A stretch of 64,000 bases of DNA from a phage, in NCBI GenBank assembly GCA_025829515.1, contig GCA_025829515.1_4865.1; one strand, 5' to 3'. Shown in pieces: positions 4,107 through 55,511 of the stretch. The notes under the pieces were generated by a model. It searched no databases, was not told where the DNA came from, and worked only from the letters and a program-made list of their open reading frames with translations. Within the stretch, counting starts at the first letter, position 1. Every line of letters begins with the position of its first letter. The position numbers and the translations under genes are program-made.

Positions 4107-4117
4107 GGAGCATTAAA

Positions 4118-4540
4118 ATGGTTACCGCTATTCGCGAAACAAAATCACTATACGATCATTTATCAGAAGAAGAAACAGCCTTATTCTACGACCTGTTACC
4201 TGAAACCAAAGCAAACGTTCAGTGGTGGTTACGTTTAGCGCTACGTGATAAAGTTGGGGAAACGCCGGTTAGTATTCTCGCGCACACGTTGGACATGACG
4301 CCCATGATTGAAATCGCGATTACCCGCCCTAAATTCTGGCGGCCTGGTATGGTGCGTGAGGCGTATCTACTCCAACGCTTAGGTGTTGACCCGGAGAAGT
4401 GTTGGCGTAAGATGGACGACCATCGCTACCGTGAAGAAATTACGAATAGCCTCAACACTATGTTGGCAATGAAACGGCTCGGTATCGAACACGAAGGTTT
4501 CGAGTCAGCGGTAAAAGCCTGGGTGAAAAGGAATAGCTAA
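4118..4540 (+). CDS. hypothetical protein
   Basis: TAAGGAG ribosome-binding site upstream of ATG. Confidence 0.6.
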   Translation: MVTAIRETKSLYDHLSEEETALFYDLLPETKANVQWWLRLALRDKVGETPVSILAHTLDMTPMIEIAITRPKFWRPGMVREAYLLQRLGVDPEKCWRKMDDHRYREEITNSLNTMLAMKRLGIEHEGFESAVKAWVKRNS

Positions 4541-4789
4541 ATGCAAAAAACAATCATCGGAATAACGGTTGGTTCTTTCTGTGGCTTCCCTACCCCACAA
4601 ACAGAACCCCAATATTTGGGCGCAGGCAAACCTGACCCGGAAGTCCGTAAGTTGCGCGAAGAAGCAAAAGCCAGAGTTCTTACTGAGCTGGAATCGTTGC
4701 TTCAGTCTCCGGTTATTTCACAATGGGGTATGGCAATAGATGTCACTCGAACTGATCGACGAGGCCGTTATCTCCCACGACTTGTTTAA
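4541..4789 (+). CDS. hypothetical protein
   Basis: ORF immediately following the previous stop; overlaps next ORF by 50 nt. Confidence 0.4.
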   Translation: MQKTIIGITVGSFCGFPTPQTEPQYLGAGKPDPEVRKLREEAKARVLTELESLLQSPVISQWGMAIDVTRTDRRGRYLPRLV

Positions 4790-5240
4790 CGCGCCTGAGC
4801 GCTTCAAGGTCGTTACAGTTAACTGCGTTGGTGCAATGGGAAGGGGCATTGCCTTGGCGTGCCGAGAACGCTTCCCATCGCTTTATAATGACTATCGCCA
4901 GAAATGCCGTAAAGAGCAAATCGTTATCGGTGAGGTCTATTGTTATCCTGAGGAAGGGGTAATACTCCTTCCTACTAAAACCCATTTTCGCTATAAATCG
5001 CAGATTTACTATGTCACGTCCGGCATTGATGCGCTGGCGCGACTAGGGGAAGACTTAGAAGGAGGGATTGCGATACCACCCCTAGGGATGGCTAACGGTT
5101 GGTTACGTTACCATGAGCGATTGGAAATCTTTATACACTTACAGAAACGACTACAGCACACGGAGCAGACTTATCGATTCTATTTACCGGACACCTTGCT
5201 GAGGGAAGCAGAGAAAATCATCCCAAATAGTTTCAAATAG
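4740..5240 (+). CDS. macro-domain-like protein (putative ADP-ribose binding or processing)
   Basis: N-terminal VVTVNCVGAMGRGIALA and later IAIPPLGMANG motifs resemble the two macro-domain signature regions, with about 86 aa spacing. Confidence 0.45.
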   Translation: MSLELIDEAVISHDLFNAPERFKVVTVNCVGAMGRGIALACRERFPSLYNDYRQKCRKEQIVIGEVYCYPEEGVILLPTKTHFRYKSQIYYVTSGIDALARLGEDLEGGIAIPPLGMANGWLRYHERLEIFIHLQKRLQHTEQTYRFYLPDTLLREAEKIIPNSFK

Positions 5241-5258
5241 ATATTATCATCAGGGCAC
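5234..5258 (+). promoter_or_regulatory. conserved phage promoter-like element (core AGATATTATC)
   Basis: One of five related intergenic copies, each upstream of a + strand gene. Confidence 0.45.
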
Positions 5259-5339
5259 ATTACAAAGGAGCACAATGCCGTCCGCGCCGTCTTCCCGGAT
5301 TGGGAACGGAAAAGTATAAATCCGTTTGGAGATACATCC

Positions 5340-6062
5340 ATGTTTCGCACCATTTTATTTCTTCTGGTAGCAATGACTACGTTCAACAGCAACGCTTCTT
5401 ACCAGACCACCAGTAACAAACACCAAAAAGAATTCGTCCTTATCCAGGACCAGTTCAATGAGATTAAACCTCTCATCGTCACCGCATCTCGAAAACAAGG
5501 CGTACATGCCGGGATGCTCGCGACCACCATTTATCGTGAATCCCGTTTTAATAAAAACGTGGGTAAGAATAAATCGAGCAGTGCTAGTAGTGTTGTCCAA
5601 ATGACGACAGGCACTAAACGCTCCATGATACGTCTGTATGGGAAACAACTTAACATCCCAAAGAATGCGGACCTTAATAAACCGAAGTATGCTGTACAGC
5701 TTGCTGCCGTTTACATGAAACACATCGAGGATCATCTGACAAAACAACTCAAACGCAAGCCGAGCACAGCCGAAATCGCTTTAGGCTACCGCTTCGGTGA
5801 GGGTGCTGCTGTTGCGATGATTAAAAAGAAATCACCGGTCGGGAAACGCTGGATGGCCAGCTACCGAAAAGACGCAGCATTCTACGGTGCGAAAATGACA
5901 CCACCGAAAGCTGAAACACGTCAGCTTGCTTTTGCGAAGGAAGACCGCGACCAACGCGTCGCTGAGCTTCAGAAAATCTGGGATACGCTGTACACCAAAA
6001 TATCACCTGCGGCCGGTACATTACTGGCAAATAACACTATCATGAAAGGAGCATTGCTTTGA
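5340..6062 (+). CDS. secreted lytic transglycosylase-like protein (SLT domain with N-terminal signal sequence)
   Basis: Hydrophobic N-terminus MFRTILFLLVAMTTF; catalytic-type motif YRESRFN followed by SSASSVVQMTTGT. Confidence 0.65.
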   Translation: MFRTILFLLVAMTTFNSNASYQTTSNKHQKEFVLIQDQFNEIKPLIVTASRKQGVHAGMLATTIYRESRFNKNVGKNKSSSASSVVQMTTGTKRSMIRLYGKQLNIPKNADLNKPKYAVQLAAVYMKHIEDHLTKQLKRKPSTAEIALGYRFGEGAAVAMIKKKSPVGKRWMASYRKDAAFYGAKMTPPKAETRQLAFAKEDRDQRVAELQKIWDTLYTKISPAAGTLLANNTIMKGALL

Positions 6063-11317: not shown

Positions 11318-11336
11318 GTGTGATATATAATCTCGT
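11318..11336 (+). promoter_or_regulatory. promoter-like element (GTGATATATAATCTCG), variant of the AGATATTATC family
   Basis: AT-rich motif between terminator and next gene start. Confidence 0.35.
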
Positions 11337-13582: not shown

Positions 13583-14323
13583 ATGTTGCGAGTCGTGAGT
13601 GAATCGCTCACGCTCCACACACAAAGTCTGATTAACTGTGTGGAGCAATACGGATGGATGTCGTGGATGGCAACGAACCGTGAGTTTGGTGCTGCGCCCA
13701 TGGAAGATTACGACGTGTTGTACAAGTGGGGATTTGAAGCGGCTTGTGATGTTGTGGCAGAGCTGGTTACCGAAACAATTGCGCGTTACAACGCAAGATG
13801 TGATGAACCGATGCCTAAACAAGTCCCGCCGCAAATACCTCCGCTACCGACAATCGATCGTGAGCATTGTCGAATCTGGACAATGGAAGAGTTGTACGAC
13901 GAACACGTTAGAATGCTGAAACCGAACGAGCTAATAACCGGTGCGTTGAACTGGTTCTTACATCGGTTCTGGACAGAGTTGGTCGATGTGGCGGGTGACG
14001 AAGATAATTGTTCTCAGGTTATTTGGTACGATCGAGCGATGTTTCATCGCAGTCTTAAAGATCGTAGTCTCTGCAACCTGTATATTGTTGACCCGTGTGA
14101 AGACATTGTAAAGGTAGCAGAAGGTAACTCTTATTCCGACTTGGTGATGCCCGTGGTAGAAAAACCGATGGGTATTTTCCTGCAGGGAGACGCTTGGGTT
14201 TTAACGGATGATATCTCGGGCTACCTGCTGGACCCGGATGACATTCACTCGGACGAACCTGATACCATCGAGTATTTTCACTTTACAGAACAGGCAGCAC
14301 GCTTCTTGCATCTCTTAAAGTAA
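13583..14323 (+). CDS. hypothetical protein
   Basis: ATG 13583 with GAAGAGGTG ribosome-binding site just after the upstream stop (track start 13523 overlaps the previous gene). Confidence 0.55.
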   Translation: MLRVVSESLTLHTQSLINCVEQYGWMSWMATNREFGAAPMEDYDVLYKWGFEAACDVVAELVTETIARYNARCDEPMPKQVPPQIPPLPTIDREHCRIWTMEELYDEHVRMLKPNELITGALNWFLHRFWTELVDVAGDEDNCSQVIWYDRAMFHRSLKDRSLCNLYIVDPCEDIVKVAEGNSYSDLVMPVVEKPMGIFLQGDAWVLTDDISGYLLDPDDIHSDEPDTIEYFHFTEQAARFLHLLK

Positions 14324-14325
14324 TC

Positions 14326-14351
14326 TGAGATAGATATTATCTACAGGGACG
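14326..14351 (+). promoter_or_regulatory. conserved phage promoter-like element (TGAGATAGATATTATCTACAGGGAC)
   Basis: Contains near-palindrome AGATA-T-TATCT; upstream of gene 14377. Confidence 0.5.
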
Positions 14352-14376: not shown

Positions 14377-15111
14377 ATGCTTAAAGTCGAAGTGCCAGTG
14401 CTTTTAAACCTCACGCCCCAGTTCTTTGAAGCGTTGTTCGAAAAGCATTGGCCCGCGTTCGCGAAGAACGAACTAAAGGATAACCCACAGTGGTATCCAC
14501 TGCGCGATGAATTCAAGTACACAGCCATCAACGTCTGTATAGAAGTCTTCACTGCGTGGTTACAAGAGATGTACGACTGCATCAACACCGAACGGTTGTT
14601 CACGCTAGAACATGTAGAGATTAATGTTGTTGACGTCTACGAAGGTTACACCTACGAAGAAGGCATTACTGCCACGGGGTTAAGCCAACAAGACGTTGAA
14701 GAACAAATCTTTGCGTGGATCGAGTGGTTTACGGAAAAGTTGATGCTGGCTGATTTTGTCACGCAGGTGGAAGATGTATTCATCCCAATGTACGAGCGGT
14801 TAGCTGAGATACGTCGTAACCATCGTCTGCTCGGTTACTGGTATGACACTTATACCACCTCCTCAACACTGTGGTCTTCCGCTACTGCCGCATTTGGCAT
14901 AACTGATGGCGATTACGATGTCGTTCATTCCGGCCCTTGGCAGTATGGTTTCGGCACCCTGTGGCACGAGCTGACCGATGCCATGTGTCTGGACTTTTAT
15001 CTGTGTGAAGGTAAGTTTTACACGGATAACTGCGTGAGCCAAATTCCGAATGGTGCGATGGTGGTGATGTGTCGCATCCGTAAAGAAGTCGCTGAGAAAC
15101 TAAACTACTGA
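14377..15111 (+). CDS. hypothetical protein
   Basis: TTAAGGAG ribosome-binding site; downstream of promoter-like element. Confidence 0.6.
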   Translation: MLKVEVPVLLNLTPQFFEALFEKHWPAFAKNELKDNPQWYPLRDEFKYTAINVCIEVFTAWLQEMYDCINTERLFTLEHVEINVVDVYEGYTYEEGITATGLSQQDVEEQIFAWIEWFTEKLMLADFVTQVEDVFIPMYERLAEIRRNHRLLGYWYDTYTTSSTLWSSATAAFGITDGDYDVVHSGPWQYGFGTLWHELTDAMCLDFYLCEGKFYTDNCVSQIPNGAMVVMCRIRKEVAEKLNY

Positions 15112-20721: not shown

Positions 20722-21446
20722 GATTAGGACGCCGTTTCTTAGTCGATATCGACACAATCTTCGATACACGAATTGGTTGGGCGAAAGTGCTGCAGCCTGA
20801 TGTATTAGAGAAGCTTGATTTAGAAGTGTATCGGATGCGGTTCACAGATGCGTGGGCCGAAGTGGTAGGAATTCAGGACTGGAATAAAAAGTTCGCGGAG
20901 CGTGATAAACGCGCGTTGCAGAACGCGCAGCCAACAGAAATGTTGCTTACGCTAAAGAACGAAGTACAGGCAATGTTAATGACGATACAGATGCACGCTC
21001 CTATTGAGCGACCTGTCTTAACGTTTAACCTGTGGCCATACGCTGATCTCGATGATGAAGAACGTCATGCGTTTTTGGAAGAACTGCGTTACTACTATAA
21101 CGAAGTGCAAGTAGACGTCGTTGTTATTCCTCACAGCGATCTTACACCAGGACGACTTGCTTCTGCATGGGACGGTTGGATAATGTACGATTGGTATCCG
21201 TGGATAGAACAACACGCGAACCATTTCCAGAAACCGATTCCGGATTTCACCATTACCCGACCGAGTATGCTGACCAGCGAATTAACGGAAGAAGCCATCG
21301 CGCAAATAAAAAGAGATAAGGTGAACCCCTTTAAGGAGTCCACCCGTTTTCTTGCTCAATACGTCGGTACTGACGTAAAGGACACTGCGCTGTTTAGTCT
21401 TCGTCGTCATCAGCAGGACGACGACTCGCAAACGCAGACGCCATGA
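20718..21446 (+). CDS. hypothetical protein
   Basis: ATGA overlap with upstream gene. Confidence 0.55.
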   Translation: MRLGRRFLVDIDTIFDTRIGWAKVLQPDVLEKLDLEVYRMRFTDAWAEVVGIQDWNKKFAERDKRALQNAQPTEMLLTLKNEVQAMLMTIQMHAPIERPVLTFNLWPYADLDDEERHAFLEELRYYYNEVQVDVVVIPHSDLTPGRLASAWDGWIMYDWYPWIEQHANHFQKPIPDFTITRPSMLTSELTEEAIAQIKRDKVNPFKESTRFLAQYVGTDVKDTALFSLRRHQQDDDSQTQTP

Positions 21447-21864
21447 TCTGGTCAACGTCAATCTTTTCGCCTACTGGTGCCAACTCACCTTCTTTCGGAG
21501 GCCGTACTGCGGCAATCTGTGGGACGGTGGGTTGGTATCCATTATTTAAATCTTCTTCATCGTCGTGACGTTTGATACCAACGCCAGCACGGGTCATTAA
21601 GAAGCCGTTTAAACTGTTGGCCAAATCTTGAGTCGCCTCAGCGCCTTTCTCAGCAGCTTTAATTTTCCGCTTCGTCATGACCTGTTTGTCGATGCCGTTG
21701 ATTAGGCGTTCGATTCGGTCGACGGCTTTTAAGTCTTTGTGTACTTCACCGTCGTTCACCATATCTGTGACGAGCTTAACGCGTAGCTGTTGTGTTTGGC
21801 GGAGAAGCGAATCTTCGTTGTCCACATCTCCGTCGAACGCTTGGTATTTCACTTCTTCGCTCAT
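21394..21864 (-). CDS. hypothetical acidic protein
   Basis: Minus-strand ORF; its 3' end overlaps the convergent + gene by about 53 nt. Confidence 0.45.
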   Translation of the reverse strand: MSEEVKYQAFDGDVDNEDSLLRQTQQLRVKLVTDMVNDGEVHKDLKAVDRIERLINGIDKQVMTKRKIKAAEKGAEATQDLANSLNGFLMTRAGVGIKRHDDEEDLNNGYQPTVPQIAAVRPPKEGELAPVGEKIDVDQIMASAFASRRPADDDED

Positions 21865-21880
21865 GGGATAACCTCATCTC

Positions 21881-21910
21881 AAAAAGAACTCAGACAGATA
21901 TTATCTATCC
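21881..21910 (+). promoter_or_regulatory. conserved phage promoter-like element (AAAAAGAACTCAGACAGATATTATCTATCC)
   Basis: About 24 of 27 positions identical to the copy at 53881-53910; sits in a divergent intergenic gap. Confidence 0.55.
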
Positions 21911-21940
21911 GAGACAACATCTCATAATAGGATAACACCT

Positions 21941-22471
21941 ATGCTTTTTAAATGGCTTTCAACACTCCTGCGTCGTAAGGCTGTAGAAGCTCGCAGACGC
22001 TCTTTGGAGGCTGAGTTTCATAAGAATACCCATAACACCCTGCACAGAGTGATGGTGGGCTTAGAACTCATTACAGAGCCTCTGGAATATAATGGGAAAG
22101 AATACCTTCCTTTTTCATTGCGTGGACAACTCGAATTACGTATTCGAGATTTTGACACGTTGGTGGAGCGATTGGAATTCTTCATTTCTGAGTATAACCG
22201 TGTATCCAGTAGCAACATTCCCAATCAACGTTGGTTAGAGTTGCCTGAGGCAATCGATAGAAAAGGAGAGAGTTCAGAACCACGATGGCTTGATCATTAT
22301 TTCGGTGCATCCGATCCTGAAGTCGCGCGCGATAAACTGCGCACAGTCTTCGCTATGTTAGAACTGTATCAGCGTGCATTTGATAAACAAACACCCGAAC
22401 AGGATACGCTGTTTAATCAAACCGCACATATCTTCCGCGAGTTAGAAGTGATAGTGGAACACTATCTCTAA
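21941..22471 (+). CDS. hypothetical protein
   Basis: ORF downstream of promoter-like element. Confidence 0.55.
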   Translation: MLFKWLSTLLRRKAVEARRRSLEAEFHKNTHNTLHRVMVGLELITEPLEYNGKEYLPFSLRGQLELRIRDFDTLVERLEFFISEYNRVSSSNIPNQRWLELPEAIDRKGESSEPRWLDHYFGASDPEVARDKLRTVFAMLELYQRAFDKQTPEQDTLFNQTAHIFRELEVIVEHYL

Positions 22472-44606: not shown

Positions 44607-47600
44607 ATGATTTTTCTGAAACAGTTTAACCAGCGCTTTACCGTGCGCAAGACCGATGAGTTCGGTCGTCCGCGTATTATCCCGCTGGAGAAGCTCCAGC
44701 TCCCACGTGGTTCTATCTACCACACCATCGATTTAGACCAGGTGGTTTTAGCGCCACCGTTAACTACACCGTGTTTTGGCCAGCTGGAAAAACCGGCGAT
44801 GATTCGCCACCACTTCCAGCTGCCTGAAGACGGCATTATTGGCCATCCGCGTAAGAAACCGGTTGTTGGTCAAGAGCGCCAAATCTTCCAGTACCATCGT
44901 AACAACCGTCGTATTCGTCGCATGATTGAAGACGGCGTGGTACGTTCCGATCCGAAAGTGCTGCTCATCGAAAACTACACCCCGATGCTGCCGCATTATT
45001 TCTACCCTGATACTCTGATGTCCTGGTACGAACGTCTGCACAACATTCAGCTGCTGATAACTAACCAGATGAAAACTGACTCACGTGAGTACATGCGTCA
45101 GAACTACTACATCATCGAACTGGGTAACGTACTGCCTTCTTTCGATCGTTTTAAAATGACGTATAACGATCGTGTTAAAACCAAACTGGAGCGCTTTAAA
45201 GACTTTAACCTGCTGTGGTTACTGGAGTTGTTCGGTTGGGTGTACGGAGATCAGCAAGCAACACTGTTTGACGGTATGGACATGAACCAGCTGTCACGTG
45301 TGAACTTTATCTTCACACACAACGGTGGTTTTACATCCATGAACATGGGTGTAATTGAAAGAATGCGTAAGTCTGCCGGTGGTCGTTTGACTGACGTGCA
45401 GATGGGCAGAATGTTCTACCGTACACTGACTACGGTGATGACCACACCGCCGTCTACCGACTACGAAGATGACGAGTTCGTTACACCGGAAGGGGATGAA
45501 CGCGTACATCTGGGAGAGGACGACGATGCTGTTGAAACCGTTGCCAGTAAACCGGAAGAAAGCCTCGATATCGTCGACGATGAAGCAACACAAAGCGACA
45601 ACGTTGACGATACACTGAACGATCATGAGTTCGATGAGAAAGAAGATCTGGTCATCGAAGCGCCGAAAGAAGATGTCAAACCAACCACCATCGTCGTAGA
45701 ACGCACCATCCCACACGATGCTGTGATTAAACAGGAAGTTGAGCGCCTGGCAGAAGCGGGCCGCGTCACCGCCAAAGCGTATCAGTTCCTGAACGAATCT
45801 TCTAAACGTTTCGTAAACTTACCCAACCCGTACAATCCTAAAGAGACGTACGGCGAAGGTCTGACCATCGATCCGAAGAAACTCGAAGTTAAAGCCGAGC
45901 CTAAGAAGATTGAACGCTTAGTTACGGATGAAGCCTGGGCGGAAAATACCACCGACCAAATCATTCGTCAGTACAACCAGGAAATCTTCCCGAAAGATAT
46001 TCTGGGGGCAGTAGCGTCATCCCAACGTCTTGGTTTAGCGATTCACAATCACACTGTTGAGAAAGAGATTTCCGTTACCGGGAATATCGAACACCACACG
46101 TTGCGTATTCAGCCGATTGGCGGAGAACCAACCACGGTACGTTTCTCAATTCCTGCATTAACCGAAGACGGTACTTGGGTTGCAAATGGTGTGGAATATA
46201 CAATGCGTCGTCAGCGTGTTGATCTTCCTATCCGTAAAGTGTCCCACGATACTGTAGCGTTAACCACTGCCTACGGGAAGAACTTTGTCCGTCGCAGTGA
46301 TAAAGTCGTCAATGATTACGGACGTTGGCTCACTAACGCGATTATTACTCGCGCGGTCGATCCAAAGAACACCGAAATCACTGATGCAAAACTGGCGAAT
46401 GTGTTCGATCCGCTGTCTAAACTGCCGCGCCAATATACCGAAGTGGCGCGTCGTGTAGCAGCGTTCAACGCAATTGGGTACCAATGGAGCTTTGACATTA
46501 AACAGAAAGCGGCATTCTTTAACGAAGGGCAACTGGCAGACGCGGACCGTGTCGAGCTGGTACCTGTGGCGAAGAAACCGCGGAGCCATGTCATCGTCGG
46601 TATGGATAAAAACTCCCAGCTTTATCGAGTGGATAAGGATAAGACCGAACCACTGGGTACACTCGCCGAGGTCTTTGGCGTGGACACCTCTAAGGCTCCA
46701 CGTGAAATGACCGAACTGTCACTGATGGGCAAATCAATCTCGCTGGGCTTTGTGTTTGCGTACTATCTCGGATTAACCGGGATGTTGAAACACTTTGGTA
46801 TCAGTTACGAGGTTCTCTCTGTCGGACAACGTATCGATAAAGGTCAGTTCGACTCCATTATTCGTCTCCAGGATGCGAAAATTGCAATTGTCTGCGAGAA
46901 CGATCAACAGAGGATGATTGTCAACGGCTTAGACCGTTACATTAAACACTTTACCACGTATACCGAGTCGGAAGTTGACCGGGAAGACATTTATCTGAAC
47001 CTGTTACGCGATGCAGATGGGCTAACACCACGCTACATCAAAGAGCTGAAACTGATGCGGACCGCATTTGTTGACGACATGCACGCGCGTATCCTCAGGA
47101 AAATGGGCGAGCCGGAAACCTTTATCGGCTTACTGGAGCGTTCTAACGAACTGCTGCAGACGGACCACACGTTACCGGAAATTAACGGTGACGAAATGAT
47201 GTTCATCGGGAACCAACGTATTTCGTATCACATCTACACCGCGATGGTGCGGGCGATGCGTAACTACAACAACGCGCCTAACTCGAATCGTAAGTTTGAG
47301 TTGACGCAGGACATGGTGTGGGGTGCAATTAACTCCGACCCGTCTGTTCTGCTGGCACCTGGCGCAAACCCGGTACAGAACATCAAAGAAAAGGATGTCG
47401 TTACCATGGGCGGTACAGGCGGTCGTAACCGCAAAACCATGGTATACAGTACCCGTGAATTCCAACCGAGCGACCTGGGGATTGTCTCCGGTAACACGGT
47501 CGATAACGGCGACGTAGGTATCACCGCCTTTGCAACAAACAATCCGCGTTACGACACCGTGGACGGCACGACCTTTAAAAAGGACCTCGATAAACTGAAG

Positions 47601-48809
47601 CCAGGTGAGGCACTGTCATTTATTGATGGCTTAGTGCCGGATACCCTGATGGACGATGCTAAGCGTCAGAACTTCGTTGGGATTCAATTCGGTTCTGCGA
47701 CCAGTTGTGTTGGCGCAACCACCACACCGTATCGTACCGAGCAAGAAAAGTTCGTGGCACACCGTACTTCTGTGAAGCACGCACGCGTAATCGATAAACC
47801 TGGCAAGATTGTGGAGGTTCTTAACGACCACGTTAAAATCAAATACGACGGAGAGGAAGAAGCTTTCCCACTGGGCCGTTGGTTCGGTCCGCACGAAGGG
47901 ACTTACTACCCACACACCCTGGTAACGAAATGGAAGCGCGGAGATAAACTCCCTGCCGGTGCCGTTATCACGTACAACGAACAACACTTTGAACCAGACA
48001 TCTACGATCCAACGCAGGTCAGCTTTAAAAACGGGATACTGGCAACTGTCGCTTTGATTGAAGGGGAAGAAGTAATTGAGGACTCCAACGCCATTAGTGA
48101 GCGGTTCGCTGCTAAGGCTGAAGCCGATGTTACCAAACTCAAAGAAGTCACAATGACGTTTACCCAGAACCTGTTGGAGATGGTAAAAGAAGGGGACCAC
48201 GTAGACGTGGATTCAATTCTATGCACCTTCACCGACAACCTGACCGGCGATATGAGCGGGTTCAGTAAAGAAGCAGCGGAAACGCTGCGTGAGTTAAGCT
48301 CCTTTGCACCACGCTCTGGTGTTCGTGGGTTTATCGACAAAATCGAAGTGGTTTACCACGGCGAGGTGGAAGATATGACCCCGTCTTTGGCGGAGATGGT
48401 TCGTAAATACGACCGTATACGTCGGAAGACTGCGCTGGCTCTCAAACGTGACGAGCCGAAGGACGGTCGAGTCAACGGTGATTTTCGTGTTGAGGGGGTG
48501 CCGTTAGCGTACAATAGCCTGTGTGTCCGATTCTACATCACACACCGGGTAGAGATGGCAGCAGCGGATAAGATGGTTATTGCTAACCAGCTGAAAACGA
48601 CGGTTCAGGAAGTGATGTATGGAACCAACAAAACGGAAGACGGGCAGGAACTCGACATTATCTTTGGTCGTGATTCCGTCGACGCACGTATCGTAGGTTC
48701 TATCATGCGCATCGGAACCACCAACGCTGTCGGGTATCGTGGTGGGGAGAATATCGGACGCATCTTAGATGGTGAAGACGTCCCAGCCTTGCCGGCTAAA
48801 ATCAACTAA
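44607..48809 (+). CDS. RNA polymerase beta-like subunit (large, with long N-terminal extension)
   Basis: MGGTGGRNRKT...REFQPSDLGIVSGNTVDNGDVGI (about 47405-47520) resembles the beta LGPGGL...[24 protein letters not shown] region; adjacent to the beta-prime-like gene. Confidence 0.55.
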   Translation: MIFLKQFNQRFTVRKTDEFGRPRIIPLEKLQLPRGSIYHTIDLDQVVLAPPLTTPCFGQLEKPAMIRHHFQLPEDGIIGHPRKKPVVGQERQIFQYHRNNRRIRRMIEDGVVRSDPKVLLIENYTPMLPHYFYPDTLMSWYERLHNIQLLITNQMKTDSREYMRQNYYIIELGNVLPSFDRFKMTYNDRVKTKLERFKDFNLLWLLELFGWVYGDQQATLFDGMDMNQLSRVNFIFTHNGGFTSMNMGVIERMRKSAGGRLTDVQMGRMFYRTLTTVMTTPPSTDYEDDEFVTPEGDERVHLGEDDDAVETVASKPEESLDIVDDEATQSDNVDDTLNDHEFDEKEDLVIEAPKEDVKPTTIVVERTIPHDAVIKQEVERLAEAGRVTAKAYQFLNESSKRFVNLPNPYNPKETYGEGLTIDPKKLEVKAEPKKIERLVTDEAWAENTTDQIIRQYNQEIFPKDILGAVASSQRLGLAIHNHTVEKEISVTGNIEHHTLRIQPIGGEPTTVRFSIPALTEDGTWVANGVEYTMRRQRVDLPIRKVSHDTVALTTAYGKNFVRRSDKVVNDYGRWLTNAIITRAVDPKNTEITDAKLANVFDPLSKLPRQYTEVARRVAAFNAIGYQWSFDIKQKAAFFNEGQLADADRVELVPVAKKPRSHVIVGMDKNSQLYRVDKDKTEPLGTLAEVFGVDTSKAPREMTELSLMGKSISLGFVFAYYLGLTGMLKHFGISYEVLSVGQRIDKGQFDSIIRLQDAKIAIVCENDQQRMIVNGLDRYIKHFTTYTESEVDREDIYLNLLRDADGLTPRYIKELKLMRTAFVDDMHARILRKMGEPETFIGLLERSNELLQTDHTLPEINGDEMMFIGNQRISYHIYTAMVRAMRNYNNAPNSNRKFELTQDMVWGAINSDPSVLLAPGANPVQNIKEKDVVTMGGTGGRNRKTMVYSTREFQPSDLGIVSGNTVDNGDVGITAFATNNPRYDTVDGTTFKKDLDKLKPGEALSFIDGLVPDTLMDDAKRQNFVGIQFGSATSCVGATTTPYRTEQEKFVAHRTSVKHARVIDKPGKIVEVLNDHVKIKYDGEEEAFPLGRWFGPHEGTYYPHTLVTKWKRGDKLPAGAVITYNEQHFEPDIYDPTQVSFKNGILATVALIEGEEVIEDSNAISERFAAKAEADVTKLKEVTMTFTQNLLEMVKEGDHVDVDSILCTFTDNLTGDMSGFSKEAAETLRELSSFAPRSGVRGFIDKIEVVYHGEVEDMTPSLAEMVRKYDRIRRKTALALKRDEPKDGRVNGDFRVEGVPLAYNSLCVRFYITHRVEMAAADKMVIANQLKTTVQEVMYGTNKTEDGQELDIIFGRDSVDARIVGSIMRIGTTNAVGYRGGENIGRILDGEDVPALPAKIN

Positions 48810-53824: not shown

Positions 53825-53863
53825 AGGCTCATCCTATCTTCGGATACGGGTGAGCCTTTTTAA
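53825..53863 (+). terminator. intrinsic terminator
   Basis: GGCTCATCC...GGGTGAGCC imperfect hairpin followed by TTTTTAATTT. Confidence 0.55.
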
Positions 53864-53880
53864 TTTATTAATTGCATTCA

Positions 53881-53910
53881 AAAAGAACTGAGATATATAT
53901 TACTTAGGTG
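53881..53910 (+). promoter_or_regulatory. conserved phage promoter-like element (AAAAGAACTGAGATATATATTACTTAGG)
   Basis: Near-identical to the copy at 21881-21910; contains TATATTAC. Confidence 0.55.
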
Positions 53911-53962
53911 AGCGTTACACGTTAACGCTTTAATCGACTATTACCCAGAAGGAGTATTTACA

Positions 53963-54361
53963 ATGACTAACCAACTACGCCAAGACCCGTTTGTTGCCAT
54001 GATGCTTTGTGCTAAAGCCGAGAGCAACGAAGCTGATTTAATTCGTCTGTTGACTGATGACGAATACCTTATCTCCGAGCGCGATAAACGTTTAAAAGAA
54101 CTCTACAAGCCAGAAACCGGTGAATCGCTCGGCAATCAAGACGCCTGGAAGTTTCTTATTCTCGTTGCTGATGAAGAGTGGCGAGCAAAAAATCCCATCG
54201 TCTGTGATATTACAGACCTACCGTACAAATACGGCGGACTCATCACTAGCGACCTGCATCTTAAACCGTTCTTTGTTGGTAAAGCAATGCAAGAACTGCA
54301 AGATGTTCTTGTTACAGCAACGAACACTTTGAGACGTTTGCGCGCTGAGCAGCTAATCTGA
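53963..54361 (+). CDS. hypothetical protein
   Basis: GAAGGAGTATTTACAATG context; TTAATCGAC element 33 nt upstream. Confidence 0.55.
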   Translation: MTNQLRQDPFVAMMLCAKAESNEADLIRLLTDDEYLISERDKRLKELYKPETGESLGNQDAWKFLILVADEEWRAKNPIVCDITDLPYKYGGLITSDLHLKPFFVGKAMQELQDVLVTATNTLRRLRAEQLI

Positions 54362-54805: not shown

Positions 54806-54839
54806 TAGTTAATCGACCATTATCGTAAGGAATATTTAC

Positions 54840-55511
54840 ATGCAGGGCACTGAACTCAACAAACTTTGGGAAAAACTGGTTCGTCAATTCCGCGACTTCT
54901 ATCGTTATACCGATAGTGCGCATCGCATGGATCACATCAACTCAGTTAAATCAAATGCGATTCGTATCGCGTATATGCTTGGGCAAACCGAACACCTGAA
55001 GCTGATACTGATTGCGGTAGCAGCTCACGATATCTTCTCTACCAAAGAAGACCGTGCGTCGCACCACATCAAAGGGTATAGCTGGATACTGGATAACAAG
55101 CCAGTGCTCAAACGTAAGTATAAACTTACCGATGATGAATGTTTGACGATTGCCCATGCAGTCTTAGAACACCGCAGTTCTCACAAAGGGAACTACAACG
55201 GGATTGTCTCTGAGATAGTTGCCGCAGCTGACCGTGGTATACCGTCTGTAGATGACGTGAGTAATTACATGCACCGTTCTTATCTGTTTGCCCGTGAACA
55301 GGGTAAAAGTAAAGGCGATGCAAAATTCCATGCCGTTGGTCACGTCCAACAGAAATTCGGACGCAACGGTGTTAGTAGTGTCCCTAGTTGGTACGGTACG
55401 CTCTTCGCAGAGCGCATTCTGGAACGCAGGGATTTCGTGGAGCAGCTAGATATTAGCTATTTCACAGATACCATTATCGACGACCTCGAAGCTCGTCTTT
55501 CACACGATTAA
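54840..55511 (+). CDS. HD-domain phosphohydrolase-like protein
   Basis: HRMDH and LILIAVAAHDIFS motifs; TTAATCGAC element 31 nt upstream. Confidence 0.55.
   Translation: MQGTELNKLWEKLVRQFRDFYRYTDSAHRMDHINSVKSNAIRIAYMLGQTEHLKLILIAVAAHDIFSTKEDRASHHIKGYSWILDNKPVLKRKYKLTDDECLTIAHAVLEHRSSHKGNYNGIVSEIVAAADRGIPSVDDVSNYMHRSYLFAREQGKSKGDAKFHAVGHVQQKFGRNGVSSVPSWYGTLFAERILERRDFVEQLDISYFTDTIIDDLEARLSHD

Follow-up and report, generated by a model that had tools for sequence, protein, structure and literature searches.

The window analysed here is a stretch of 64,000 nucleotides of phage DNA (contig GCA_025829515.1_4865.1), and the element in question is a conserved promoter-like motif that recurs upstream of + strand genes. 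By Megablast the window belongs to the SPN3US-like group of Salmonella jumbo phages (genus Seoulvirus, genomes of ~240 kb). It shows 99.3% identity to Salmonella phage 1252, and Erwinia jumbo phages come next with 60-80%. The phages of the SPN3US group are nucleus-forming relatives of phiKZ and encode two multisubunit RNA polymerases. SPN3US itself serves as a genetic model for the assembly of giant-phage heads and for the packaging of the virion RNA polymerase (vRNAP). Four copies of the motif in the window are predicted to be early promoters. They are listed below with their scores against a 30-nt position weight matrix (PWM), the coordinates of the scored segment being given in brackets; each site is named by the first position of that segment.

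53875-53912, + strand: predicted class A early promoter, cattCAAAAAGAACTGAGATATATATTACTTAGGT then GAG; PWM 32.6 bits (53883-53912)
21876-21913, + strand: predicted class B early promoter, atcTCAAAAAGAACTCAGACAGATATTATCTATCC then GAG; PWM 33.7 bits (21884-21913)
14312-14349, + strand: predicted class B early promoter, TCTGAGATAGATATTATCTACAG then GGA; PWM 32.0 bits (14320-14349)
5219-5256, + strand: predicted weaker variant promoter, TTTCAAATAGATATTATCATCAG then GGC; PWM 23.4 bits (5227-5256)

The 53883 promoter, with its predicted +1 at the G at 53910, serves the gene for a 132-residue protein (53963-54361) and the genes following it. It contains TATATTAC-N6-G, which is the pattern of phiKZ. 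The 21884 site takes up the 76 bp between two divergent genes. Its predicted +1 is the G at 21911, and it serves a 176-residue gene (21941-22471) together with the long run of + strand genes behind it. For the 14320 promoter the predicted +1 is the G at 14347 and the gene served is 14377-15111; this site covers the last 4 nt of the upstream coding sequence (CDS), including the stop codon. The 5227 promoter has its predicted +1 at the G at 5254 and is located upstream of the SLT transglycosylase gene 5340-6062. The operons headed by the window promoters include thymidylate synthase and a MazG-type pyrophosphohydrolase.

The first-pass annotation of this DNA had listed five related copies, all in intergenic gaps just upstream of + strand genes, and had described those at 21879-21910 and 53879-53910 as nearly identical. 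These two copies are related and have in common the 12-mer TCAAAAAGAACT, which is the -30/-20 portion of the promoter, but without gaps they agree at 24 of 31 positions. The 12-mer is found exactly at 21879-21890, but in the second copy it occupies 53878-53889, one base earlier than reported, and the copy placed at 5234 starts at 5237. Four of the five copies belong to one PWM family and point to a + strand gene. Three of these are intergenic or nearly so, but the 5227 site covers the last 14 nt of the CDS 4740-5240. The fifth copy, at 11318-11336 on the + strand (GTGATATATAATCTCGTGG), does not belong to the family: between 11281 and 11360 the PWM score is at most -1.8 bits. It has A for the near-invariant T at -9 and is devoid of the -20 block, and its would-be +1 falls inside a Shine-Dalgarno sequence.

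The annotated genome of phage 1252 (243,229 bp, 260 features, 93% coding, 48.5% GC) was the reference for a genome-wide test. The PWM was built iteratively and gave the consensus AAAATTTCAGATAGATATTATCTAAGTGAG at convergence. It detects 24 distinct sites in phage 1252 with scores of 22-41 bits, while all other positions stay at or below about 10 bits. For comparison, the best score in random genomes (30 first-order Markov genomes of 243 kb each) was 8.2 bits on average and 16.3 bits at maximum. In the window, the pattern ATAKATATTAY-N6-G with at most one mismatch gives 5 matches against 0.5 expected, and none of 100 shuffles reaches 5. It had been claimed that the conservation exceeds chance, and both of these controls bear this out. 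The short core GATATATTA with one mismatch is found 4 times against 9 expected. This short search is uninformative; the motif stands out only as the full-length pattern.

The placement of the 24 sites is also characteristic. Twenty-one lie entirely between genes, two reach into the end of the preceding gene and one is within a gene, so that contact with a CDS occurs in at most 3 of the 24 although 93% of the genome is coding (binomial p = 8e-22). An equal frequency of the motif in coding regions is thereby refuted. Every site (24/24) is oriented in the same direction as the downstream gene, with a predicted leader of 26-261 nt from the G to the start codon (median 51). A blind comparison of k-mers between intergenic and coding DNA gave as its top words the T-runs of terminators, hairpin loops and Shine-Dalgarno sequences, and then ATAGATATTATCT and AGATATATA, which are intergenic in 9 of 11 and 7 of 7 copies, respectively. 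Two segments of the phage 1252 genome, 67-112 kb and 145-175 kb, are free of PWM sites. At position 219534 of the phage 1252 record, a 30-bit copy of the motif is located inside the CDS of a PHIKZ068 homologue, 274 nt before the next gene (566 aa); this copy is a possible internal promoter.

All sites were aligned on the conserved G. The promoter extends from about -33 to +3, with the consensus tC.Aaaaaa-TtT-cAGATA-k-ATATTAy-(N6)-G(+1)Ag and the information concentrated in four blocks:

-32 to -24: block near -30, A-rich, tC.Aaaaaa
-23 to -15: block near -20, T-rich with CAGATA, TtT-cAGATA
-14 to -7: block near -10, AT-rich, k-ATATTAy
spacer and start: 6 nt, loosely conserved, then G(+1)Ag

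The segment ATATTAY at -13 to -7 is near-invariant, with 1.0-1.9 bits per position over the 24 sites. G is present at the predicted +1 in 26 of the 28 hits used for training the PWM, some of which are minus-strand reads, and it is invariant in every orthologue examined. The sites form two classes. Class A (7/24, including 53883) has the form TCAGATATATATTACCTAGGT-GAG, contains TATATTAC exactly, and mostly has a 5'-terminal hairpin behind it. Class B (15/24, including 21884, 14320 and 5227) has the form GAGATAGATATTATCTnnnn-GAG and is near-palindromic. The two remaining sites are hybrids which connect both classes, and classes A and B are therefore considered as one family. The near-palindrome AGATA-T-TATCT, proposed earlier as the core of the element, forms an 11-bp palindrome without mismatch in all three window copies of class B but is absent from the class A copy at 53883 (AGATATATATTAC).

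The sites are retained in related phages. All four window sites, and the promoter in front of the gene for the beta subunit of the non-virion RNA polymerase (nvRNAP), are kept at orthologous positions in relatives, with substitutions concentrated in the N spacer. The Erwinia-phage genera keep four of these five sites, and three of the four in the window. The 21884 site is found in the orthologous divergent gap of STsAS, pEa_SNUABM_29, Asesino, phiEaH2, ChrisDB, Machina and Kwan, which represent four genera, and 7 of 8 phages (4 genera) share its 26-nt core without change. At this site AAAAAGAACTCAGACAGATATTATCT is invariant in 6 of 7 relatives and GAG is kept, while the four bases after AAAAAGAACTCAGACAGATATTATCT vary freely (ATCC, CACT, AACT, TCAT, TGAT). 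The 53883 site is kept in SPAsTU, phiEaH2 and Asesino with 26.5-31.3 bits, and the orthologue of 14377-15111 is preceded by the 14320 site in SPAsTU with 21.6 bits and in Asesino with 27.6 bits. The core AAATAGATATTAT-N5/6-GGGCAC of the 5227 site is preserved in phiEaH2, Asesino, ChrisDB and Machina, with or without an overlap with the upstream stop codon. The promoter before the homologue of PHIKZ071 is kept in Asesino, ChrisDB, Parshik and Wellington, again from four genera.

It is important to compare this family with early promoters that have been mapped in other jumbo phages. In AR9, 41 early promoters of the form AAATATATATTAT-(6N)-G+1 were identified by differential RNA sequencing (dRNA-seq) and are active without new protein synthesis; the same distance of 6 nt between the element and the start is stated for phiKZ and phiR1-37 (PMC5312081). 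According to a review, an AT-rich motif of ~10 nt near -10 precedes the presumed early operons in every jumbo phage that encodes RNA polymerases, and it has been confirmed wherever transcripts were profiled; transcription of phiKZ, AR9 and phiR1-37 is independent of the host polymerase (PMC7598289). The early promoters of 201phi2-1 and phiKZ show conservation at -10, -20 and -30 (PMC11512511).

The highly conserved AT-rich element of ~10 nt near -10 that marks phiKZ-like vRNAP promoters (TATATTAC / ATATATTAT) is present in the SPN3US clade as well. The statement in the first-pass annotation that TATATTAC belongs to phiKZ early promoters proved correct. The first 50 kb of phiKZ contain 7 copies of it, each of them between genes, on the coding strand and with N6-G behind it. 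One of them precedes PHIKZ054, the nuclear-shell gene, whose early-promoter transcription start site (TSS) has been mapped by dRNA-seq (PMC8244752). This promoter scores 22 bits with the PWM derived from the present clade. The -10, -20 and -30 blocks are in register with those of phiKZ (TTTAAa, T.AAA.A), and the consensus strings match block for block.

The genes that follow the sites were also considered. One site is directly followed by a homologue of PHIKZ071 (gp71), the beta subunit of the nvRNAP (E = 1.9e-29), and another by a homologue of PHIKZ068 (gp68), the sigma-like fifth subunit of this enzyme (E = 2.8e-6). In phiKZ and AR9 the nvRNAP genes are early genes read by the injected vRNAP (PMC7598289). 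The first downstream genes are mostly of 'unknown function' in PHROGs and Pfam. The vRNAP of SPN3US virions was found by mass spectrometry to consist of five subunits, gp241, gp240, gp218, gp42 and gp244 (PMC5694885). Three genes of the window match such subunits:

44607-48809, + strand: 1400-residue gene, match to SPN3US gp241; annotated as 'RNA polymerase beta subunit' in SPLA5c; the size fits 159.1 kDa (PMC5694885)
42975-44588, + strand: 537-residue gene, match to SPN3US gp240, a vRNAP subunit of 59.6 kDa (PMC5694885)
20053-20721, + strand: 222-residue gene, match to SPN3US gp218, a vRNAP subunit of 25.2 kDa (PMC5694885)

These assignments as putative vRNAP subunits are based on annotation, size and gene order. 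In relatives the 222-residue gene is annotated either as an RNA polymerase beta subunit or as a virion structural protein, and a search of PDB sequences with the 1400- and 537-residue genes gave no match. No PWM site is located upstream of these three genes, as expected for late genes.

The 24 sites are very probably early promoters of the SPN3US-like jumbo phage that are read by the injected multisubunit vRNAP. This interpretation is based on the motif and its statistics, its placement and orientation, its conservation across genera, the match to mapped promoters and the identity of some of the downstream genes. The vRNAP as the reader, the start at the G and the early expression are proposed by homology of architecture with the mapped promoters. 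The idea that the phage's own polymerase recognizes the element had already been put forward, and it gains from the match to the mapped early promoters of AR9, phiKZ and 201phi2-1. According to the proposed mechanism, the vRNAP would be packaged in the head and injected together with the DNA. It would read the -30, -20 and ATATTAY blocks and start at the conserved G after the 6-nt spacer. In this way ~24 promoters per genome would turn on the first wave of genes without the host RNA polymerase, namely small host-takeover genes, operons of nucleotide metabolism and subunits of the nvRNAP. The second, non-virion polymerase would then transcribe the later genes.

The sites could also be host sigma-70 promoters, with TATTAT or TATTAC as the -10 hexamer for Salmonella RNA polymerase right after injection. 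Counted from the conserved G, the TATTAT of class B occupies exactly -12 to -7, and it differs from TATAAT at 1 of 6 positions. However, a consensus scan of the coding strand detects no pair of hexamers overlapping the 21884 or the 53883 motif, in agreement with the earlier remark that the element does not look like a sigma70 promoter. Class A has C at -7, so the critical T(-7) is lost. There is neither TG at -15/-14 nor a TTGACA-like -35 block; conservation is found instead at -20 and -30, which is the phiKZ pattern, and phiKZ, AR9 and phiR1-37 transcribe without the host polymerase (PMC7598289). A sigma-70 promoter is thus very improbable. A terminator at 21884 appears less credible still. 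The terminator scan flags 21889-21913 as a minus-strand hairpin of 11 pairs with a 3-nt loop and a T-rich tail, so that this copy could be an intrinsic terminator, a hairpin followed by TTCTTTTT, and not a promoter. However, the stem is AT-rich (4/11 G-C pairs) and its variable positions show no covariation among orthologues, the nearest minus-strand gene upstream (to the right) is more than 10 kb away, and the motif at 53883 is not flagged, the scan having covered the 21884 and 53883 regions. The T-run is the complement of the A-rich -30 block that is common to all 24 sites and to phiKZ.

The symmetry of the class B copies might point to an operator for a dimeric phage or host regulator, with the promoter elsewhere or overlapping. 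The dyad AGATA-T-TATCT, perfect over 11 bp in these copies, can be extended to about 25 bp; of the 12 position pairs around -10, about 9-10 are symmetric in the consensus and 11 in the copy at 21889-21913. However, class A has the same -30/-20/-10/+1 layout with only about 10 bits on the other strand, and the phiKZ sites have no dyad. Conservation is strong at -17 and -18 but almost absent at the mirror positions -3 and -2, and in orthologues the spacer bases of the right arm vary independently of the left arm. The strict co-orientation with downstream genes is expected of a promoter and not of a symmetric operator. The features common to all copies (ATATTAY-N6-G and the -20 and -30 blocks) are asymmetric, and the dimeric regulator that had been suggested earlier is not needed to explain them. 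An operator in place of a promoter is improbable, if a little less so than a host promoter; a dimeric regulator could still act as an additional layer on the palindromic copies.

Several points weigh against early promoters read by the vRNAP. The literature search found no TSS, timing, polymerase-dependence or rifampicin data for SPN3US-like phages (Seoulvirus, Erskinevirus). The resemblance of class B to the sigma-70 -10 hexamer at -12 to -7, described above, belongs here as well, as does the dyad symmetry of this class, which the early promoters of phiKZ and AR9 do not show. Scores at the 5227 site are low (23 bits in the window and 10-17 bits in orthologues), and this site precedes a transglycosylase, a type of gene that is often virion-associated. 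The 617-residue gene after two other sites, considered as a candidate for the nuclear shell, gave no match in the PDB or Pfam and no BLASTP similarity to PHIKZ054. In 201phi2-1 an adjacent early promoter is missing for some nvRNAP genes (PMC11512511). A literature search with the sequence strings of the motif returned only unrelated primer matches.

The near-palindrome at 21884 deserves separate consideration. The 25-bp segment 21889-21913 has almost equal scores on both strands, and its mirror reading is as follows:

21889-21918, - strand: CTCGGATAGATAATATCTGTCT then GAG; PWM 31.0 bits

This reading is a possible divergent promoter, with a predicted +1 at 21891, for the minus-strand gene 21394-21864. 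In such an arrangement one -10 element centred on the dyad may serve two G starts separated by 20 bp, at 21911 (+ strand) and 21891 (- strand). In phage 1252, 3 of the 5 sites that score at least 20 bits on the opposite strand as well are located at divergent gene junctions, against 1 of the 19 other sites (Fisher p = 0.018). In Erwinia phages the minus-read score of the 21884 site drops to 16-26 bits, and firing in both directions is for this reason only a possibility. A weak sigma-70-like match, TTTAAA-17-TATTAT, is present on the minus strand at 21952-21924. The more general proposals that class B copies are bidirectional vRNAP promoters, and that classes A and B are functionally distinct early sub-classes, are tentative and rather doubtful. 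If true, bidirectional class B promoters would lead to early expression of a few minus-strand genes. Class A may be coupled to a leader module, formed by a 5'-terminal hairpin and a CGACYAT box, that controls the stability or translation of the mRNA.

The elements found around the predicted starts at 53910 and 21911 are these:

53825-53867, + strand: intrinsic-terminator-like hairpin and T-run; RNA fold -21 kcal/mol, then TTTTTAATTT
53910-53930, + strand: 5'-terminal hairpin from +1, GAGCGTTA-cacgt-TAACGCTT; -7.7 kcal/mol
53932-53943, + strand: leader box AATCGACTATTA; 28 nt from CGACTAT to the start codon ATG
54811-54822, + strand: leader box again, TTAATCGACCATTA; upstream of 54840-55511, an internal gene of the operon
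21911-21923, + strand: short 5'-terminal hairpin, GAGA-caaca-TCTC; -3.0 kcal/mol for the stem alone

The terminator-like hairpin closes the upstream operon, and the 53883 site follows ~25 nt after it; its stem is bulged, and a simple terminator scan misses it. The order of terminator, promoter, hairpin, CGACYAT box and Shine-Dalgarno sequence is kept in the orthologues of this locus. There the sequence of the 53910 stem differs but the pairing is kept (AGATTA/TAATCT). The 32-nt leader of the 21911 transcript has a fold z of -4.0, and its GAGA...TCTC arms are retained in 6 of 7 orthologues. In phage 1252 a hairpin of 6-9 bp opens 11 of the 24 predicted transcripts (z below -1.5), mostly exactly at +1 and in three cases at +2 to +4; the sites with a hairpin include 7428, 15933, 43853, 45553, 66281, 114217, 117986 and 198651. 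These hairpins occur mainly at promoters with long leaders (class A) and show compensatory changes between copies and between orthologues. They fit the predicted start and suggest protection of the 5' end.

The leader box, (T)AATCGAC[CT]AT(TA), is intergenic in 9 of 12 copies and located at a fixed distance of 17-28 nt from the start codon, immediately ahead of the Shine-Dalgarno sequence. About 12 further copies are present in phage 1252. The box is kept in orthologues, is not part of the promoter PWM, and occurs after early promoters as well as in front of genes further inside these operons. It could be an element for translation or RNA binding, or a second class of promoter.

The leader 5254-5339 before the SLT transglycosylase gene is better conserved than the flanking genes, and in phages of the Machina type the BLAST match is confined to it, the flanking genes being unmatched. 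Its layout is GGGCAC..ACAAAGGAG..TGTCCGCGCCGT, a variable hairpin, and then ACGGAAAAGTA. A tiny open reading frame (ORF) at 5275-5319 (MPSAPSSRIGNGKV*) is not conserved as an ORF. Rfam gave no match on this leader or anywhere in the window.

Some differences in gene content were observed in phage 1252. It has an extra gene of ~519 bp (record 125610-126128) relative to the window at ~4107-4118 and to SPLA5c, an indel of a single gene that is visible as a 513-bp change of the coordinate offset between phages otherwise 99% identical. Two long unannotated gaps of 1.8 and 1.2 kb (record 192210-193979 and 195520-196767) lie outside the window, and one of them contains very AT-rich repetitive sequence (AATATAATAATA...). 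The region of these gaps includes an HNH endonuclease gene with the early-promoter motif upstream.

The promoter class is already known from phiKZ and AR9, and the SPN3US-like sites are further members of it, so that the motif reveals no new kind of system. A logo of the SPN3US promoters may already be in print (Lavysh 2016). The predicted sites provide a concrete map of first-wave transcription units in Seoulvirus, Erskinevirus, Machinavirus and Wellingtonvirus, with ~24 promoters per genome and their predicted starts. The match to phiKZ over ~35 nt would mean that promoter recognition by the vRNAP is conserved across distant Chimalliviridae. Such conservation would be useful for annotation of early genes, for phage engineering and for the design of templates in vRNAP biochemistry. 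To our knowledge, neither the vRNAP holoenzyme nor the determinant of its specificity has so far been characterised.

The early promoters of phiKZ were reportedly described by Ceyssens in 2014. They were later refined by dRNA-seq (PMC8244752) and by ONT-cappable-seq (PMC10914365). Both phages have an A-rich -30 block, a T-rich/AGAT -20 block, the element TATATTAC at -14 to -7, a spacer of N6 and a G start, and the octamer TATATTAC is identical in the class A copies. In both, the promoters are intergenic and oriented with the early operons; phiKZ has about 28-32 of them per genome. In the SPN3US clade, however, the -20 block is longer and richer in G/C (CAGATAk), the start GAG is conserved, and the majority class has T at -7 (ATATTAT) and is near-palindromic. 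The phiKZ sites have been mapped experimentally, while those of the SPN3US clade are predicted from sequence.

The AR9 promoters are similar to class B in the -10 element ATATTAT, the 6-nt spacer and the G start, and the multisubunit vRNAP reading them is injected and requires no new protein synthesis. They differ in that the DNA of AR9 contains uracil, the phage is not nucleus-forming, the upstream part is pure A/T and dyad symmetry has not been reported. In 201phi2-1 the blocks at -10, -20 and -30, the small hypothetical genes downstream and an early promoter before some nvRNAP subunits are alike. Some base preferences are different, and several nvRNAP genes of 201phi2-1 have no adjacent promoter, whereas the homologues of gp71 and gp68 are directly preceded by one here. 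Phage N4 (PMC4496689) also has an injected virion polymerase and a small set of early promoters, and the class B copies might in principle form an extruded hairpin that has a 3-nt loop and is centred near -10. The N4 enzyme, however, is a single-subunit T7-like polymerase which requires a DNA hairpin. The promoters of class A, phiKZ and AR9 have no inverted repeat, and for this reason a hairpin is not a defining feature of the promoters of the SPN3US clade.

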